Below are positions 43,788-56,300 of a DNA stretch of 64,000 nt, piece after piece. The translations under genes were made by a program, and so were the position numbers. Each line of letters starts with the position of its first letter. Position 1 is the first letter of the stretch. The DNA comes from Moniliella sp. 'wahieum' (lineage: Eukaryota): the NCBI GenBank assembly GCA_003971905.1, contig RSEE01000007.1, positions 1,116,001-1,180,000 on the forward strand, read 5' to 3'. Below the pieces are notes generated by a model. The model was given only the letters and a program-made list of their open reading frames with translations, did not search any database and was not told where the DNA came from.

Positions 43788-46256
43788 ATGACCGGTGCTG
43801 AACTCGGACGACGAAGGGTCCTACGACGCCTACACCGCCCAAGCCCAGCACCTTCCCTACCGCGACAGTCAGCAGCTCCACGAGTTTGGCAGCCATGCTG
43901 CCTCCTCATTCTACTCGAGCTCCACCGCTGGCCCTGATGACGCTACTCAGGCTACCCACAAACGCAGCTTGGGGCAGCACCGATGCCCATGACCAGGATT
44001 TTGGTCCGTCACCATTTACCCGCGCGGGGTCGGGCAGCTACCGTTCGGCAGCTGCTCTTGGCTCGGCTCCCTGGGTCGGAGGACCCGCTGGCGGCATCAC
44101 CAGGCGTAGGTGTGCCTGCCAACAGCCACGCTGCGCTGGCCTCTGCTTCAGCACAAGGTGCGAGGACACCGGTAGGAGTCAAGTCGTCGCCAAGTGCAAC
44201 TACGACCGCAGTGGGAGCCTCGTCGTCCTCTTCGCCCGATGTGGCCTCGCGGTTCGGCCTGTTGGATCCCAATGCGCATCAACTTTCAGGATTGTATACA
44301 GCGAGATGGATGATTTGGACGACGACCTGCACGCATTGGCCCCGACGACATTGCCCACCGCAACAAGAATTCCGGTGGGATCAGCAAACGGGGGCTGTTG
44401 AACTTGAGTACCTTGGCCATCCTCATTCTTGCGTTGCTCATGTTATTTGCCGGGTACCCCATCTTGACCGCCATGCGCGACAAGCACGATCAACTGGGTG
44501 GGTATGGACCAGGAGGAACTAATGGTTCTGGCCAAGTCTCAGTATTCCAGGCGTTCGCACCACCTCATCGACCCGGATACGCCACAGGATGCCTACACGC
44601 GCAAATCGGGCGTCGACCAAAGTACCATGAACCTAGTCTTTTCCGACGAATTTGAAAAGCCCGGTCGGAGCTTTTATCCCGGTGATGAGTATGTCCATGT
44701 CCTTTTCCTCCCATTTTTTTTCCCTGTATACCTGTGGACCGATATTCTCGTCAATGTAGTGATGTTATATGAAGATACTGACCCCCCCCCCCCTCCCCCT
44801 GCTGCTATGTGTCCCCTCAGCCCCTTTTGGGAAGCTGTCGATCTACACTACTGGGCCACCAACAATTACGAATGGTACGACCCTGCGGCAGTCACGACCG
44901 CCAATGGTGCGTTGCGACTTACCATCAGCCAACACCCCGAGCACAACCTCAACTTTCGTGGGGCATGGTCCAGTCCTGGAATAAGTTTTGCTTTACGGGC
45001 GGTTGTACTGGTAGCCAGTGTACGGTTGCCAGGGAAAGCCAAAGCTTCAGGCTTGTGGCCGGCCATCTGGTTGATGGGCAACTTGGGCGGGCAGGGTACG
45101 GTGCTACCCTAGAAGGAACCTGGCCTTATAGTTACGATGCGTGCGATGTGGGCACCTTGGCCAACCAAACTGACCCAGCCACCAACTTGCCTGATTCTTC
45201 AACCTTGGGCAACTGCCCCTTTAACCAAAAACACAGTAGCAAGTCCCTTTCTTTCCTCCCGGGACAACGCTTGTCGGCGTGCACATGCCCAGGCGACGAT
45301 CATCCCGGCCCACAGTTCCCCAATGGCTCTTACCCGGGACGCATGGCCCCAGAAATCGATCTGTTTGAGGCCCAGGTCAACCAACAGGAAGGTATGACGG
45401 TCAGTCAAAGTTGCCAATTTGCCCCGTACAAGTATGTATTCCCCCCCTCCCCCCTCCCCCCTTTCACCCATGTTGGGTAGTTTCCAAATGACCCACTATT
45501 AGGAGAAGAGAGCTGACCGATCGGGGGCTATGCTCTTCCATCATTACTCATTCCGCAGCGCATACTATCGTCCCACTGCCAAACCCATGTTGCTCGACAA
45601 ACGTACCATTGTCAATAGCTACACGGGCGAGCTTACGCAACAAAGCATGTCGGGCGTCACCCCACCAACCAACAGGGCATGCAGTACCTCCAGGACAACT
45701 CGACGGGAATCTTTACCGAATACGCCGTCGAGTACCAACCGGGCCAGGGGGGGTACGTACAATGTGGGCGAGCGGTACGCCTGCCTGGCGGTTAAGGGAC
45801 GAGTAGCGGCCGATCCAGTGTCGAAAATTTCTTCCCGCCCGTACCGCCCGAACCACTATACATTCTCGCCACGTGGGCATCGCAAAACTTTGGCATCCGG
45901 CTTGGAAGCAACTCATTTGGCCTTCGGCCATGGAGCTGGATTGGATTCGTGTCTACCAGCCACAAGGTAAGTCCAACGTCGGTTGCGACCCTCCGGATTA
46001 CCTACCGCAGCCTACATTGCTCGCCATCAAGAAGCCTACACCAATCCCAATTATATCTCTGGGGCGAGGGGGGCTACGGCGGCGTCTGGCCCCGCAACCG
46101 CTTGAACCCAGATGGTTGTAACGCCGTTCCATCTAAAAACCCAGGAAGTCCCACCAAGCCATGCCCAAGGCTAAAAGTTTCCCTTCCCACGCCATTGGCC
46201 ACAACCAGCAACAGTGCCAGATCAATTCGTGGAAGGACGGACAGCAGCAGAATTGA
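43788..46256 (+). CDS. KRE6: Beta-glucan synthesis-associated KRE6/SKN1-like GH16 type II membrane protein; introns ~44689-44820 and ~45432-45558, frameshifted
   Basis: LILALLMLFAGYPI TM segment; LIDPDTP; LVFSDEF..GRSFYPGD|PFWEAVDLHYW; QSWNKFCFTGG; LWPAIWLMGNLG; WPYSYDACDVGTL; PGQRLSACTCPG; APEIDLFEA (GH16 catalytic motif); DWIRVYQ; VGCDP. Confidence 0.93.
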
Positions 46257-47154: not shown

Positions 47155-47619
47155 CTTGTTTTGGGGAACAGACCACTCTCTTAGCCTGGTTGTGCTAACT
47201 AGCTACTACTAGCTACTAACCTCCTCGTCGTGGCGACCATCGTGATGGTACATTGCCCCGAGCGCGCCCGGACTCTCGTTCTGTTGTTTTAAGAAATCTC
47301 AACACAGCTATCGATGGACCATATGAACCGGAGAGGTTAAAAAAGGGTGAATAAGAGCGTAGAAGACGGGGATTACGAAGATCCTGATAAGCACTTGTAT
47401 CCAAAGCATAGAACTGTGCCCTCTGATACCTCCCTCGTAGTCGGCGGGGCTAGCGGTATCATCAGTGTACACATAAAAGTTGGTCATTGGTGTTTGTAGT
47501 TGGTGTTGGTGTTTGGTGGTGGCGGTTGGGGTGATGATTGATGATTGATGATTGATGATGGAAGGCCGAGGGCGTGGTCAAGGGCCCATCAAGGGCCCGT
47601 CGACTCGGATCGTAACCGC

Positions 47620-49665
47620 TCATTCCATCCGATCTCGACTGGCAGCTCGCGGGGTGGGAGGAACGAGCGTTGTCCTGGCCTCGGTCCGATCGGGAAAAAT
47701 CTCCGATCCCAACCCAGTTTCCGACTCGGCATCCCATCGCTCCAATTCCTCCGTCCCATGCGAACCCGAACCCGAACCCGACCCCGAATCGGAATCCGAA
47801 TCGGAATCCGATTCGAGGGGGGCCTGCACCGCTCGCACCGTCGGTCTTGGCGCCCAAGACCCGCCCAACCCGGGCGACGGAGCACGCACGCTCTTCGGTC
47901 GAACAGGCGTCGACGCAGCGGATGCAGATGCAGATGCCGACGCCGACCCCGACGCCGAAGCGGACATGGCCGGCTTCGACGGTATCGATCGGCCCCACGC
48001 TTCTGTCTCAGCAGCTGCATCAGGTGGCGCACCTAGCGCACTACTTTCCTCAGCGATCGGACTTGCCTCCCGCTCGCCCCAGGCGGGCACACTTAGAACG
48101 CTCCGGATCGACCCGTGGCTCGACCGACGAGGACGGCGTCGGTTCGCACCAGGTCGCGGCCCACGCGGCGCAGAGTTGACTGTTGCCCCGTACGTGCTCG
48201 TGCTGCGCGCCGCTTGCACTTCAGCACTCAAAGTCAAATCCAGCCGCTGGTCCAAAGGCCAGTAGTGCATTTGCAGTACCGGCCCCAACGAGAGCAAGAG
48301 TAGCGCCAAGAGCAGCGTGGGGACAGGATGCGGAGACCACCGCTGGGATCGGTGGGATCAGTGGGATTGGTAGGATCAGCGGGTTTGGGAAGGTACAGCC
48401 ACCCTACCACCCCGGCTCCCAGCCATGCTTGGCCCGCCGTCCAGCCAGCTCGTCCGACAACCGTGGCATAGACAAACGTCCGCCGTGGCGTACCCACACT
48501 GGCACAGGCTAACGTCACTAGACTCCCACATGGCCAGAACGCAATTCGCGACCAGAGAAGGTACGCTGCCAAGCGGTCCGTAGCTTGGGCATGCGAAAGC
48601 ACCTGACGCCAGTACCCGACATGGCTTTCTACCACTTCCATCCCAGCTAATGACATGCGCAGCAGTACGTCCAGCTCGTACGCTACCACACAGCTCGGGA
48701 TCGTCGCCTGCCGCCAAAAATGAAAAATGAACATGGGGGTGAGAGGGGAGTGGTGAGTGGTGAGTAGGCTTCCGGAACAGATAGCGTCAATACGTACCAT
48801 CAGTACCCATATCGTTGCCAACACAGGACTCCAGAAGGCTCCGGCACACATGGTGAGCAGACAGGTGCCCGGTAACGAGAATGCTTGCACACTGCCACGG
48901 AACTGGGTCAGCTAACTGTAGGGTCCGCACCAGCGCAGAGAGTAAGGGGCCAAGGGCAGAGAGCAAAGGGCCAAGAGCCGAAAGCAAAGTGCGAAAGGGA
49001 AGGCACAACGTACCAGAAAAAACAGGATGGTCCAGGCGAGGTGCAGCCGAACAGGATGCGCATGGACGTAGCGTCGGACCGCAGCGAGCAGCTGGGAAAG
49101 GTCGGTGTGGCTGCTGGGCCAGTGCCACAAGGGCCGGTCGGTACTAGGAGGGGAGAGGGGAGAGGGAAGAGGGCAGAGGTCAGGTTGCCGGCTACCTCGT
49201 CACGAAGAAGGAAAGCGAAAGCAAGAGCGAGAGGAGAGGGGAACGTACGGATCGACGTGGGCAAGATGCGCGCGACAGTGGTAAAGACAATGGCAAGAAC
49301 AAGGACGAGGATGAGGGCGGCACGCACGAGGGTGAGCAGCGTGCGTTGCTTAGCTACGGGGGGAGGCATTGTAGGCGGAAGAGGGAGCTCATCGGGTCAG
49401 ACGCATCGGCCTCAATGTCCAGGTTGACGTGCAGCGGCAAGTGCGAACTAGAACGAAGCGCGTACAGCGTGCCCCAGTCGTTCCGCCCTAGGTACTCGTC
49501 CTCGCCCCCATCGGCCGGCTCGACGGGGGCGACAATATCAATGTGCGCACTGGCGTCGGCGTCGTCCGTGTCGGGCAGGAAGAGGATGGGGCGGCCTGCG
49601 TCGGCGGGCGGGGAGGCTGGCCGTGCGTGGGAGGCGACGGGCTCCGGCGTGGACACGGCGGCCAT
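47620..49665 (-). CDS. VTT/SNARE-associated (TMEM41/Tvp38/DedA-like) membrane protein with acidic disordered tail; introns and frameshifts
   Basis: TM segment LVRAALILVLVLAIVFTTV; QAFSLPGTCLLTMCAGAFW re-entrant motif; YLLWSRIAFWP...LVTLACASVGTPRRTFVYATVVG, similar to the VTT motif R..P...N......FF..T.IG. GTACGT donors at ~49248 and ~48797. Confidence 0.7.
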
Positions 49666-50898: not shown

Positions 50899-51292
50899 GG
50901 TAGTGGCGGTGGTGGTGGTGGGGGGGCAAGGCAGCGAGCGCCTGGGCCTGGTTGCTGGTGCGACACGACGCTTGCTTGGCCCGACCAGGCGGCGCTGACG
51001 TTGCCTCGGCCCGTTCCGCCCCGGGCGTTCCGCTGTGGGCGACCGCTGATTGATGAGAATGGGTGAGGGGGCGCAACGCAGAGTACGTAAGGGTGTGCCA
51101 GTAGGGTTGGGGTGAGCTGTTTTAAAGTTTAACATTGAAGCCGATGCTTATCAATATCAACCAACTGCGGGGCATTCCGTTCCATCCCAGCATCCGCCGC
51201 CACATCGCATCGCATCCCTCGGCCCTCAGGATCCACTGCACGCCTCCATCGACCCCCTCCCTGGAGCCACCACGGCCACGCCTCTCCCGCCC

Positions 51293-52860
51293 ATGTTCGC
51301 CCGCGCCCGCCCCCCACCCCCTCCCACCCTCCACCCCTCTCGCCGCCATGGCCAGCGCGCCCCCGCCGCGCAGCGCCCAGCCCCGTTTCTCCGCCCCGTC
51401 TACGACCCGCAGCAGTGCGCCACCACCCTCGTCTGCTCCATCACCGCCCTGCCCCCGTTCGAGCGCCTGAGCTTTGAGGAGCTGCGCGCAGCCGACTATG
51501 CTCATGGACGCGCGCCACCTGTCCCGCTGATCAGTGCGGCCGATCGCCTGTGGGATCCTTCCTACCATGCCCAGGTACACGAGGAAGCCGGTGGGATCAT
51601 CATGTCGCCGGTTACCCTACCTGGGTACGAGCACCTGAGTTTGGAGGAGTTGCGCCTGCTCGATTCCCGTTATGGCTTGGTTTTCCTCCTTCCTCCTGCC
51701 CTGTACCTCCAAACGGCACAATCGCTCACCCCGAATACGCCCGGCCTCCTTGCCCGATGGATTGTACATGTCCATCACAGCCATGCTCCCCTATGCCAAG
51801 GCCAGCTTCGAAGAGCTCCGGGCGCAGGATTATGCTTGCATGAAAGCCCGAACAAGCTTGGTTGCGTCTCCAATGCCATCGCTATCGAAATTGCCTTCGG
51901 AATCGCAATCACCGCAATCGCAAGCGCAATCCCAGCCGGTAGCTTCCGTACCTACTGCGCCTACAACCGGCCCTGCTGTGCCCCACAATGTTGACGCCCT
52001 ACGAGAGATGAACCACTGGCACCTTTGCCATCGCACTCGGTACCAGCATTGTCGCGCCCACGTTCTTCCTCTGTGGCTAGCGCCAATCCTCCATGCCCCT
52101 CTCGAGAGGACAACTGCCCTTTCACTCTACCTGTTCCCCCCACCGCATCAAGCGTCCTCCACCCCTCGACATCGGGATCGACTATGCGCCTGTTTGATCC
52201 CAACAAGGAAGTGCAATCCATGCCCAAAAGCCTTACCGCAGGTCCACCCTTATCTCTGCCCCGCCCTGGAGGAGCGCCGCCCACCGACCCGGGCGCCTAC
52301 ACGTCCATCGAGCCGGCATCTGGATCGGGATCGGGATTGGTATCCTTGCCTTCGTTCCATTTCTCCGCACCACTGAGTTTCATCCGATGGGCTACCACGT
52401 CTCCCCTCCCCTTCGCCACCTGGCCACCTTGTCCCCGGCCCAGTTGGCGCAGTTGACGATCTGACGATCCAAAGGGACGGCTATGGCCTGATCCAGTTCC
52501 TCGAACCGGTCGATTTGACCCAGGTACCACTCTCGACGCTGTTGGGCGGCGTGGTGGTGGTGCGCAAGAAGACCGTGCTGCTGTACCCAGACGCAAAGGA
52601 AGTGGACGAATCGGCAGAGGGCGTAGTGGATGGCTGGTCGGCGTTCCACGTCCACCAGTAGGAACGGGCCTATTGTGCACCGCTTGGTACGCTTGGAACA
52701 GTGCTGGCCTACCACACCGCACACTAACTTGCCCATTCGCGATGCCGCCCATTCTGCCTCCCGTCGGTACGTGGCGAGCCTGCGCGCCCGCCCGAAGCAA
52801 CGCTTTGTCGCGTACGACGCAGCCAAGGGCCGCTGGACTTTCCTCACGCACTGGGATTGA
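51293..52860 (+). CDS. Nup98/Nup116-like paralog: three GLEBS motifs plus C-terminal Nucleoporin2 (autopeptidase-like) domain, no FG repeats; frameshifted
   Basis: GLEBS-like CSITALPPFERLSFEELRAADY, MSPVTLPGYEHLSLEELRLLD and MSITAMLPYAKASFEELRAQDY. C-terminal GYHVSPPLRHLATLSPAQL..VDDLTIQRDGYGLIQFLEPVDLT...VLLYPD...LEQCWP...RFVAYDAAKGRWTFLTHWD-stop. Confidence 0.85.
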
Positions 52861-53317
52861 GCGATGGGAATGAGCTAATGAGCACAGCGTGGGGGGTGGG
52901 GGTGCGGGTGGTGGGAATTCTTTTCTTCTTCTTTTGAGCCCGATTGGGTTGGGATGTGCATGTGGATCGGAGCAAACATCTGGGAAACTGTCGCAACCAA
53001 CAGATATATAGTCCGCGTAGATCTTACCGCCCTTGGATGACGATGATGATTCGATGATCGATAAGTGCGGCTGCGTTGAAACGTTGAACATTGAATGGCG
53101 AGGGGCGTCCAAGCGTCACCCATCTTTCACGCATCATCCGTTTCCCTGTTGCCTCTGTCGCCGTTCCGCCAGGGGGCGGAATGGGTGTGCAGCGCACTGA
53201 TGCTGCGCCATCGCAAGCCGTGTTGTCGTAGATGCTCCCCTCGCCTCACCGGGCACCACCACCAACGATTGCCACCCCCATTACCACCCCCATTGCCGCC
53301 ATTGCCTGTTGCGCACG

Positions 53318-56300
53318 ATGGACGAACGTGACGAGCGTGGGGCATCCGACATGCTCGGGGGCCTTGGCCTGGGCCAGGTGCTGCGTGAGCTCGGCGTCGC
53401 CGACGAGGGGTCGTCCGAGGCAATGCACAAGCTCGGGCTGGCCCAGCACTCGGCTCTGCAGGCATCAACCATCTACAATGACACTTTGAGGACGACGATG
53501 GCGGTCTTCCCGAGCCCGAGATGACCGAGGAGGAAAAACCGCTCGCGCCCAACAGCAGGCCGAAGCTGAAAAGTATTATCGTCTTGTGCCGCCTCGCTCC
53601 TGCCACAACACAGTCGGAGGAACAAATCCTCCGCAGAAAAAGGAGAAAGCCCAGCTCGTTCTTAACCAACTCAAACAATTGTTGCCTGCGTACAAACGCG
53701 ATGCCGTACTCGACTTTACCGAACTATTTACTGCACCCCGCCCAGCCAAGAAGCGCAGGTTGGTCCCACCCAAGGGGTTTGGTGCGTATCCCCATCTTTT
53801 GCCCTTGCCCTCGCCCCCCCTCCCCACCCCCCGCCACTCCCTCGGCGCTAACACTAACACTCTCTTCCAGGTCTGGCTCCTCCTCCGGCCGTACCCTTGG
53901 AGCAACGACAGGAGGTGTCGCGCTATCACCCAGATGTGACAGTGCGGCAGTTTCAGACTTGGTGGACAAATTCAAAACGACCTCGGGCCGGCCCGCGGCC
54001 GGGGTGGAGCAATTGCAGGAAGAACTGTTGGACCCTTCCTTGTCGACGGAAGGATGGAAAAGCCAAGCTTGGACTGTGGCTGAGGGCGACTTCTTCCGTA
54101 AGGCCGCACACTCACTGACGACTTTGATTGGGACGACGCGATTCGGTGGCACGCTCAACTCAAACCCAAAGGACCCACGCAGTTTTACTTTGACCTGAAC
54201 GATGACCAGATGGTGTTTGAGGAGGTGACGCCGGATGCGTCCAGTGCCCAGGTACAGCACCTTTCTGCCCGCCACGCTCGGCAGCCAACTTGAACCCACT
54301 CAACTTGTCCAACGACCGGTTCTATGAGATCCCAAAGAGCATCGGCAGAAGGTGCGACAGACTTTGGGTCAATTGGTTGTCCAGCACGCTCGTCCTGCTG
54401 CCCATCTTCAACTGCCGTTCTACAAGACGCGCTTGATCAAGGAAGAGCTCAATTCGTTCCATCGTCCTCCCATCCAATTCCCAACCAACATTGTCATCCC
54501 GTTCAACAAGGTCCAGTCCAGTCGCAAGGACCGACACAAGAAAGCTAAGGGAAAAGACGCGTTTGACGTGTTCCACTCGACCAGCGATTTGAGTCTGAAG
54601 GATACAAGCTCGTTTGTTTGTACGAGTACTCAGAGGAACACCCGCCCGTACTGTCCAACTATGGTATGGGCCACATTCTCGTCAACTACTTCCGTAAGAA
54701 GAGTGCCAAGGAAGAAACCATCCCGCGTGCCGACTTGGGGAGACATTTGTGTTGGAACCACAGGACGAATCGCCGTTTATGGGGTTTGGTCAGGTGGAGC
54801 CAGGACAGATGCAGCCAACACTGTACATAATATGATCCGAGCCCCGCTCTTCCCCCACAAACCCCAACCCACTGATTTCTCTTGATACGCAACACCAACA
54901 AGGACCAAGTCACCTACCATCTCCGCAACATTCAACACGCCTTTGTTGTCGGCCAACAGTTCCCCATTGTCCAGATCCCCGGACCACATGCACGCTTGGC
55001 CACCAACCTGATCAAAACTCGCCTCCACATGATTGCCCACAAACTCATCCAGCGCAGCAAGGGTCATCGGATCAAGATGCATCGCGTGATGCGCTACTTT
55101 CCCGATTACAACGAGTTGCAGATGCGCCCAACGACTCAAAGAGTTTATGGAGTACAACCGCAAGCTGGCGATCCCGACCAGGGCTTTTGGAAATTGATGC
55201 CCGGAGTGGTGGTGCCAGAGGAAGGTGCATTGTACAAGCAGCTCCCACCGGAACATATGGTCCTGTGCGAGAGCATGCAAGCTGGCCAACAGCGTTTGGT
55301 CGATCTGGGTCTGCTGAAATTGGGCGACGATGCGAATGAAGATGAAGATTCGGGCGAAGGGAACGAAGTGGAGCAGTCAGTGGCACCTTGGTTGTCGAGC
55401 AAGAACTTTTTGAATGGTGCGTCGGGCAAGGCGATGCTGGCCCTCCATGGAGAAGGTGATCCGTCCGGGCGTGGCGAGGCGTTCAGTTTCATTCGTGTCG
55501 ATGAAGGAGATTTTCATTGCGGCAGGCGAGGATCCATTGGAAAAGCGCGCGGCAATGGAGGCTGAAGCAATGAGCAAGTCGGGACACCGGTACAATGTCG
55601 CAGAACACAACAAATCTATCGCTCGGAAATCAATCGTATCTGGGCGGCGCAACGGCGTGCGCTCAGCGCACACAAACCCCCAAATCACACGTCGCGACTT
55701 GGTCCCCCTCCACCGTGCCGTGCGCGCATACGAACAGGAAATCCTGGCCAACCAAGAAGCAAGGGAGGACGAGGCGTTCTCGGCTCCACCTACGAACCAC
55801 GATCGGTACGAGGGTAAGATCCTTCGTATTCGTCGCTTGGTCGATGGCGAGTGGCGCACCGAGTATGTACGCGACAGGTCAACAATGGAGGATTACCTCC
55901 GCCAACGACAGACCATGTTGGATGCCCAGATGGAGACGGAACAGCTGGCTCCGACGGGCGATGCAGTGTTGGATGCTGCACGGCAAAAACGCATTGCACA
56001 AGCTATTGCTCATCTTAAGAAATGCCAGGACCGGCGGATGCAACGGAAACAAGCCCAGGCTGCCTCGGTGGGCAAAACGTTGGAAATCAACTTACATAAA
56101 GCAGCGACCAAACGCACGTGTGGCCGGTGCGGTCAAGTAGGCCATATGGCCACCAACACTTCCTGTCCCTTGTTCAATAAAGTCCCACCGGCCCGCCTCT
56201 GCCGCCGCAGCTGCCGCTGCAGCTGCAGCAGACGCTAATATGTCCTTGACCAACATGCCCGTCGGACTGGGATCAGCTAACCCCTTTGCCCTGTCCTCCT

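Follow-up and report, generated by a model that had tools for sequence, protein, structure and literature searches.

The 64-kb window analyzed here, the whole stretch of 64,000 nucleotides from contig RSEE01000007.1 of Moniliella sp. 'wahieum', contains at positions 51293-52860 of the plus strand a gene encoding about 520 amino acids, designated the Nup116-like gene in what follows. We see an even chance that this is a real gene interrupted by assembly errors, and that its product is a member of the Nup98/Nup116/Nup145N lineage that lacks FG (Phe-Gly) repeats and serves as a pore-tethered dock for Rae1/Gle2. The predicted protein begins with an array of three tandem units of about 56 amino acids each, all with a Nup98-type GLEBS core, continues through a Pro/Ser-rich, disordered linker and ends in an autopeptidase domain (APD) of the Nucleoporin2 family. 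To our knowledge, the Rae1/Gle2 docking site of the well-studied Nup98-family proteins always lies inside the cohesive FG domain, and the docking role is hard to separate from the barrier role because of that position. A working gene of the kind proposed would be a natural separation-of-function variant in which the pore anchor is kept, the docking motif is tripled and FG repeats are absent. If the pore-tethered triple dock is true, export-factor docking would be uncoupled from the FG barrier, which would make it genetically testable with the barrier untouched; if the locus is a pseudogene or an assembly artefact, it would be a mere curiosity of one poor draft genome.

Three GLEBS-like motifs had been proposed for the N-terminal region in the initial annotation, and we find their cores within a few bases of where they had been placed (HMM, hidden Markov model; i-E, independent E-value):

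51419..51511, plus strand, GLEBS-like repeat R1, core 51437-51499 SITALPPFERLSFEELRAADY (PF21240 E 3.8e-5; custom HMM i-E 9.8e-11)
51599..51679, plus strand, GLEBS-like repeat R2, degenerate, core 51605-51664 SPVTLPGYEHLSLEELRLLD (custom HMM i-E 0.0068)
51759..51845, plus strand, GLEBS-like repeat R3, core 51771-51833 SITAMLPYAKASFEELRAQDY (PF21240 E 1.6e-4; custom HMM i-E 4.5e-11)

GLEBS is described in a section of PMC3783196 as a non-FG site that anchors Gle2/Rae1 at the pore. In the profile searches R2 is a far weaker match than R1 and R3. The Pfam profile Nup98_GLEBS (PF21240) matches R1 with 24.1 bits and R3 with 22.1 bits against a gathering score of 27, in both cases over profile positions 17-39 of 39 only, and the same scan did not report R2, for which the custom HMM value is the sole profile match. 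The custom HMM, for which 29 GLEBS repeats from nine other proteins were used, was run against the 1765 six-frame open reading frames (ORFs) of at least 20 amino acids in the window; it ranked R3, R1 and R2 as the top three, the best background ORF scoring 0.65. It is partly circular, in that the nine source proteins were retrieved with the Nup116-like gene as query; for each of them, however, Pfam independently supports GLEBS. Across the six-frame translation of the 64 kb, the core pattern [SH]xEE[LM]Rxx[DE] has three matches, every one of them inside the Nup116-like gene.

R3 is the best match to the human Nup98 GLEBS and aligns to residues 29-53 of 3mmy_B (HQCITAMKEYESKSLEELRLEDYQA) with the pattern ITAMxxYxxxSxEELRxxDY, from which R2 deviates by PVTL in place of ITA(M/L) and LLDSRY in place of the xxDY end. 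The Glu-Glu pair (xEELR) is kept in all three repeats; that of R3 aligns to LEELR of 3mmy_B, and the aligned stretch of 3mmy_B holds a single adjacent Glu-Glu pair, that of LEELR. In the relevant part of PMC3783196, E201/E202 of Nup98 (E154/E155 of Nup116) are reported to form conserved salt bridges to R216/R172 of Rae1. Pairwise identities among the repeats are 12/27, 15/27 and 9/27 amino acids, with different codons at 7, 8 and 6 of the identical residues, respectively. Judged by these figures, the repeats are old copies in which the motif was maintained while the remainder drifted. Apart from Nup98_GLEBS and Nucleoporin2, no family, the Bub1/Mad3 type included, gave a Pfam match to the scanned pieces at E<=1.

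The C-terminal part of the gene carries the second major feature, for which the coordinates are as follows:

52381..52857, plus strand, Nucleoporin2/APD-fold domain in four frame pieces (52381-52446, 52449-52622, 52640-52672 and 52663-52857; PF04096, PDB matches and tblastn)
52849..52860, plus strand, C-terminus H-W-D-stop, aligned with the ...VDHF-stop end of four environmental loci (L001-L004, see below)

A Nucleoporin2 domain ending in THWD-stop had been annotated here, and PF04096 recovers it above its cut-off of 28.4 bits in two frame pieces, one with 43.9 bits (E 3.3e-11, profile 23-76) and the other with 32.4 bits (E 1.2e-7, profile 86-139). The top PDB matches of both pieces are the C-terminal domains of Nup116 from C. 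glabrata and S. cerevisiae (3nf5 at 5.9e-8; 7tbi, 3pbp and 2aiv at about 5e-7 and 1e-6), with Nup145N and Nup98 ranking lower, so that the comparison with yeast Nup116 drawn in the initial annotation was apt. Relative to its homologs the domain has a loop insertion of about 12 amino acids after YPDAKEVD. Its last codons, ACG CAC TGG GAT TGA at 52846-52860, read T-H-W-D-stop. This position we take to be that of the HF/S autocleavage site, as the initial annotation did; relative to HF/S, the His is kept, Phe is replaced by Trp and the nucleophile Ser by Asp, after which TGA follows. The N-O acyl shift requires Ser, Thr or Cys. The earlier prediction of a non-cleaving autopeptidase is correct and at the same time nearly trivial, since a single residue follows the position of the scissile bond and the domain can release nothing. 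Likewise, the loss of the catalytic Ser and the absence of Nup96 are both borne out: past H-W-D-stop all frames stop within about 30 codons, no Nup96 coding follows, and the next gene is TAF1, which leaves Nup96 absent at this locus. By sequence comparison, the domain is a non-cleaving APD unfused to Nup96 and closest to the Nup116 C-terminal domains.

In the mechanism that we propose, the APD would tether the protein to the pore via the sites used by the APDs of Nup116 and Nup98, the GLEBS array would recruit up to three Rae1/Gle2 beta-propellers per molecule, and Rae1/Gle2 docking, with its roles in mRNA and pre-60S export, would be concentrated at the pore with no contribution to the FG barrier. 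Of the three units, R1 and R3 would be expected to bind, and R2 only weakly if at all. In Nup98-type nucleoporins the partners of the APD are Nup82/Nup88 and Nup96/Nup145C. Anchoring of Nup98 to the pore scaffold by the APD is stated in a section of PMC4283134.

Between the array and the APD lies the segment in which FG repeats would be sought:

51846..52375, plus strand, Pro/Ser-rich linker of about 170-175 amino acids (20% Pro, 19% Ser, 0 FG in the frames taken)

Its description as a Pro/Ser linker free of FG repeats holds. No FG dipeptide was found in the inferred reading path of the Nup116-like gene, and all three frames of 51116-52900 together contain only two FG and one GF dipeptides; for comparison, Nup98 FG domains have a median of 9 FG per 100 residues (n=666) in the part of PMC4283134 that surveys them. 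Because the FG domain, a defining feature of the family, is absent, the gene is classed here as a relative without FG repeats rather than among the GLFG nucleoporins. We regard it as very improbable that this is an incomplete view of a canonical gene whose FG domain is encoded elsewhere owing to gene fission, mis-assembly or a distant 5' exon. The poor assembly would allow for it; against it, the proteasome alpha-subunit gene on the opposite strand starts 394 nt upstream (ATG at about 50898-50896, minus strand), leaving no room for an upstream FG-repeat exon, and no FG coding was found in the three frames between that gene and R1. The only FG-dense ORF in the 64 kb belongs to a minus-strand simple-sequence repeat at 47.5-48.0 kb (47500-48025), whose translation is GFRFGFRFGVGFGFGF and which is not a nucleoporin FG domain.

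Compared with the linkers of the ascomycete-like loci L001-L004 and with P0005, a metagenome protein introduced below, the linker itself showed no significant resemblance; BLASTP of P0005 against it gave E 0.59. A KEV..MP resemblance noted by eye was unsupported.

Among known systems, Nup116 of S. cerevisiae and C. glabrata (PDB 2aiv, 3pbp, 7tbi and 3nf5) shares with the Nup116-like gene a GLEBS and a non-autocleaving C-terminal APD unfused to Nup96, and it is the best solved-structure match for both halves of the APD. Among the three yeast paralogs GLEBS occurs in Nup116 only, and it is there a single copy inside an FG domain of 740 residues, according to the section of PMC4283134 on these proteins, whereas the window gene has three GLEBS-like units and no FG. 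The Nup98-Nup96/Nup145 precursor (human NUP98 1ko6, 2q5x and 3mmy; yeast Nup145N 3kep) belongs to the same APD family, with weaker matches (E 0.0034-0.12 for Nup98). The canonical order given in that section of PMC4283134 is an FG domain with embedded GLEBS, an intervening domain, Nucleoporin2 and Nup96. Against the precursor's one GLEBS, FG domain, HF/S and Nup96, the window gene has three GLEBS, neither FG nor Nup96, and H-W-D-stop. In its predicted parts, the GLEBS and a non-cleaving terminal APD, the window gene would work most like Nup116.

Relatives of the array were sought with an exhaustive phmmer search of amino acids 1-128 against 1.84 billion representatives, which returned 12 proteins at E<=1e-3, the best of them a plant protein (E 2.5e-10, 37% identity). 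Nine of the 12 carry Pfam GLEBS and the other three are unrelated repeat proteins. The nine have tandem GLEBS arrays of 2-7 copies and comprise XP_042009968.1 from Salvia splendens (P0001), KAI9359234.1 from Zopfochytrium polystomum (P0004), KAL7576467.1 from Epithemia clementina (P0010), and six metagenome or unnamed proteins (P0003 and P0005-P0009). The chytrid protein P0004 has three GLEBS, and the diatom protein P0010 two GLEBS and a RING finger. The two metagenome proteins P0005 and P0008 contain few FG and resemble the Nup116-like gene in their three GLEBS, of which the first two are likewise spaced 56 amino acids apart; over 83 amino acids, P0005 runs collinear with R1-R2 (41% identity).

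None of the nine is an orthologue of the Nup116-like gene. The Salvia protein, a NUP98A-like database prediction, shares tandem GLEBS in an FG-poor protein with a terminal APD (residues 881-1021); it has seven GLEBS by Pfam and seven by the core pattern, with eight FG and no GLFG in 1021 amino acids. It differs in being a plant prediction with 37% identity in the best stretch, and is clearly an independent expansion. Going by this prediction, the architecture of tandem GLEBS plus terminal APD is already in databases. The remaining eight of the nine GLEBS-bearing hits (P0004-P0010 among them) are without APD, and two end in a RING finger; the domain content of these RING-ending multi-GLEBS proteins would suggest E3 ligases that dock Rae1. 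It is possible, and we propose it tentatively, that FG-poor tandem-GLEBS proteins form a recurrent, undescribed class of Rae1/Gle2-clustering adaptors with separate origins in fungi, plants, chytrids and diatoms, ending in a pore-anchoring APD or a RING finger, with the fungal gene as a working pore-tethered triple dock. Were the fungal gene a working one, it would have to be asked why GLEBS was multiplied in some lineages. In the limited literature collection that was searched, we found no paper on multi-GLEBS or FG-less Nup98-family proteins and none describing any of the nine proteins (P0001 and P0003-P0010); the main text of PMC2951903 does not mention Nup98.

Multi-GLEBS proteins without an APD, which make up eight of the nine hits including the two RING-ending ones, also bear on whether the fungal protein needs the pore. 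It might be a soluble buffer or decoy for Rae1/Gle2 (or Bub3), with an APD that no longer binds the pore and a GLEBS array that titrates or chaperones its WD40 partner, be it in the nucleoplasm or in the cytoplasm. According to a section of PMC3783196, overexpressing GLEBS alone in HeLa cells leads to mislocalised Rae1 and a block of poly(A)+ RNA export, and the loop insertion of about 12 amino acids and the altered C-terminal tail of the APD would fit a changed function. We nevertheless judge such a role quite unlikely: no part of the protein is better conserved than the APD, which resembles the Nup116 C-terminal domains over both halves, so that a lost binding role would be hard to explain. 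Bub3 in particular is disfavored as the partner, in that Pfam sees a Nup98-type motif and, at E<=1, no Bub1/Mad3-type match.

A reading as a pore-tethered dock has to accommodate the state of the reading frame. The Nup116-like gene is not one open frame, a point at which the initial annotation only hinted. Its pieces are spread over the three frames, R3 being in a different one from R1 and R2, and six breaks or more separate them: stop-codon logic on the ORF list gives at least 4, homology 6-8 and a codon model 6-9. The last figure comes from a codon-usage Viterbi model that recovers four breaks in TAF1 and is unstable in the Pro/Ser-rich linker (6-9, of mixed types), and is used as a range only. 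The first break or breaks fall between the second and third repeats:

51677..51746, plus strand, uncertain R2-R3 spacer with one +1 or two -1 shifts (codon model: shift at about 51746)

No homolog settles the frame path in this spacer. Another break lies in the linker at about 51984-52000, and those of the APD, all -1, lie at about 52376-52380, 52447-52449, 52623-52640 and 52668-52672. With L001-L004 and P0001 as queries, tblastn orders the APD pieces as 52393-52443, 52443-52622, 52640-52672 and 52663-52845, each step being a -1 shift. All four APD breaks are of single-base-deletion type and each returns to an ungapped register with the homologs. At one of them, a lost G in CAGGTT yields AQLAQ followed by VDDLTIQRDGYG, which keeps the register both of L001 and of the C. 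glabrata Nup116 sequence VENLVVGNKQYG. Conservation is undiminished past every break, through the final residues RFVAYDAAKGRWTF, and none of the seven inferred pieces contains an in-frame stop. An exact 8-nt tandem duplication (TGACGATC twice) lies at 52454-52469, right at one frame break. Removing this tandem would likewise restore a frame, and it was weighed as a possible origin of the break near 52450. It was rejected in favor of the lost G because, with VDD retained, GYG follows the conserved Tyr at the distance seen in L001 (29 residues) and VDD aligns with VEN in the Nup116 of C. glabrata.

The same signature is found in neighboring genes. TAF1 has four successive -1 breaks at 54604-54874 (about 550 nt) with contiguous Pfam coordinates (14-96, 94-140, 128-165 and 183-392), and the proteasome alpha-subunit gene on the minus strand has one break at about 50750 (profile 1-24, then 29-175). 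Since the -1 signature breaks TAF1 and the proteasome alpha subunit, genes that cannot be dispensable, the breaks in the Nup116-like gene look like assembly errors rather than decay. The assembly has a systematic indel error, and therefore pseudogene calls in this genome need prior polishing. In KRE6/SKN1 (44314-46102), too, several frameshifts of single-base-deletion type were observed.

Decay, in which a duplicate of a Nup116/Nup98-like gene had been stripped of its FG region and were now accruing frameshifts, would nonetheless account for several features, namely 6-9 breaks in 1568 nt (a density no lower than in the neighbors), a degenerate R2, the lack of an orthologue in our searches, and the lost catalytic Ser with a Phe to Trp change at the C-terminus. 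We consider a pseudogene unlikely, however. The four breaks resolved by homology are of the single-base-deletion type seen in TAF1 and the proteasome subunit, conservation does not diminish after any of them, the inferred pieces are free of nonsense codons, and the motif residues are kept across many synonymous differences between the repeats.

Several observations still weigh against a working FG-less dock. R2 is a weak GLEBS, and the Pfam matches of R1 and R3 stay below the gathering score and are confined to the C-terminal half of the profile. An orthologue combining three GLEBS, an FG-free linker and an APD was found neither by phmmer among the 1.84 billion representatives nor by word-indexed protein searches. 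In the latter there was no scoring match for amino acids 1-128 or the APD piece among longer proteins, nor for the one-frame gene (scored on its APD) among proteins of near length; in the ESM Atlas, amino acids 1-128 gave no usable match and the C-terminal APD piece led to generic Nucleoporin2 clusters only. The nearest relatives of the APD, L001-L004 (45-52% identity over 55-58 amino acids), are ordinary fungal FG nucleoporins. The break density of 6-9 in 1568 nt is at the upper end compared with the neighbors under the codon model (4-5 in 1235 nt of TAF1 and 4 in 3070 nt of a DBP10-like gene), for which reason some of the breaks could be real. Finally, the frame path is ambiguous in the R2-R3 spacer and in the linker, where two frames are open over 51995-52376. 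On the sequence at hand, the draft is too error-ridden to prove a working gene.

The environmental relatives of the APD came from a metagenome scan with the APD piece, which gave 17 loci; L001-L006 were examined, and L007-L017 matched over only 18-20 residues. The ascomycete-like loci L001-L004, genes of the Nup116 type, share with the Nup116-like gene a terminal APD (...VDHF-stop) with no long ORF after it. They differ in that L002-L004 have a single GLEBS each and about 30-44 FG in the ORFs upstream of the APD (upper bounds, with overlapping frames summed); L001 is cut off upstream and has 6 FG in its listed ORFs. In L002 (1899-2074) and at the equivalent places of L003 and L004, a short intron of about 50 nt interrupts the conserved core of the single GLEBS, falling between positions 31 and 32 of the 44 in the custom HMM; for this reason a plain EELR pattern search missed these three motifs.

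L005 and L006 encode unrelated proteins with a short stretch in common with the APD. In L005 this stretch (1709-1831, SGYGTIQFLEPVDLSG) reaches 46% identity with the APD core across 37 residues and lies within an ORF of more than 1000 amino acids on a 26-kb metagenome contig. The ORF resembles a surface protein, with repeated Ig-like segments and a C-terminal membrane anchor. By its sequence, the stretch could be an APD-like module outside the nucleoporins, or chance.

The window as a whole is eukaryotic and fungal-looking, with a G+C content of 53-63%, and contains housekeeping genes that include KRE6/SKN1 (beta-glucan synthesis), a proteasome alpha subunit, TAF1 (DUF3591), a DBP10-type helicase and the succinyl-CoA ligase beta subunit, among others. 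The immediate surroundings of the Nup116-like gene and its candidate start are as follows:

50899..51292, no strand assigned, divergent intergenic region of 394 nt between the proteasome alpha gene (minus strand; Pfam Proteasome_A_N and Proteasome) and the Nup116-like gene
51293..51295, plus strand, candidate start ATG, in frame with R1 and R2 (start choice inferred)
53482..55562, plus strand, TAF1-like gene (DUF3591, by Pfam), downstream neighbor and internal control for assembly frameshifts

At 51349-51351, 56 nt downstream of 51293, a second ATG has a much stronger Kozak-like context (gccgccATGg) and lies in another frame; its use as the start (MASAPPPRSAQPRFS...) would require one extra single-base correction before R1.

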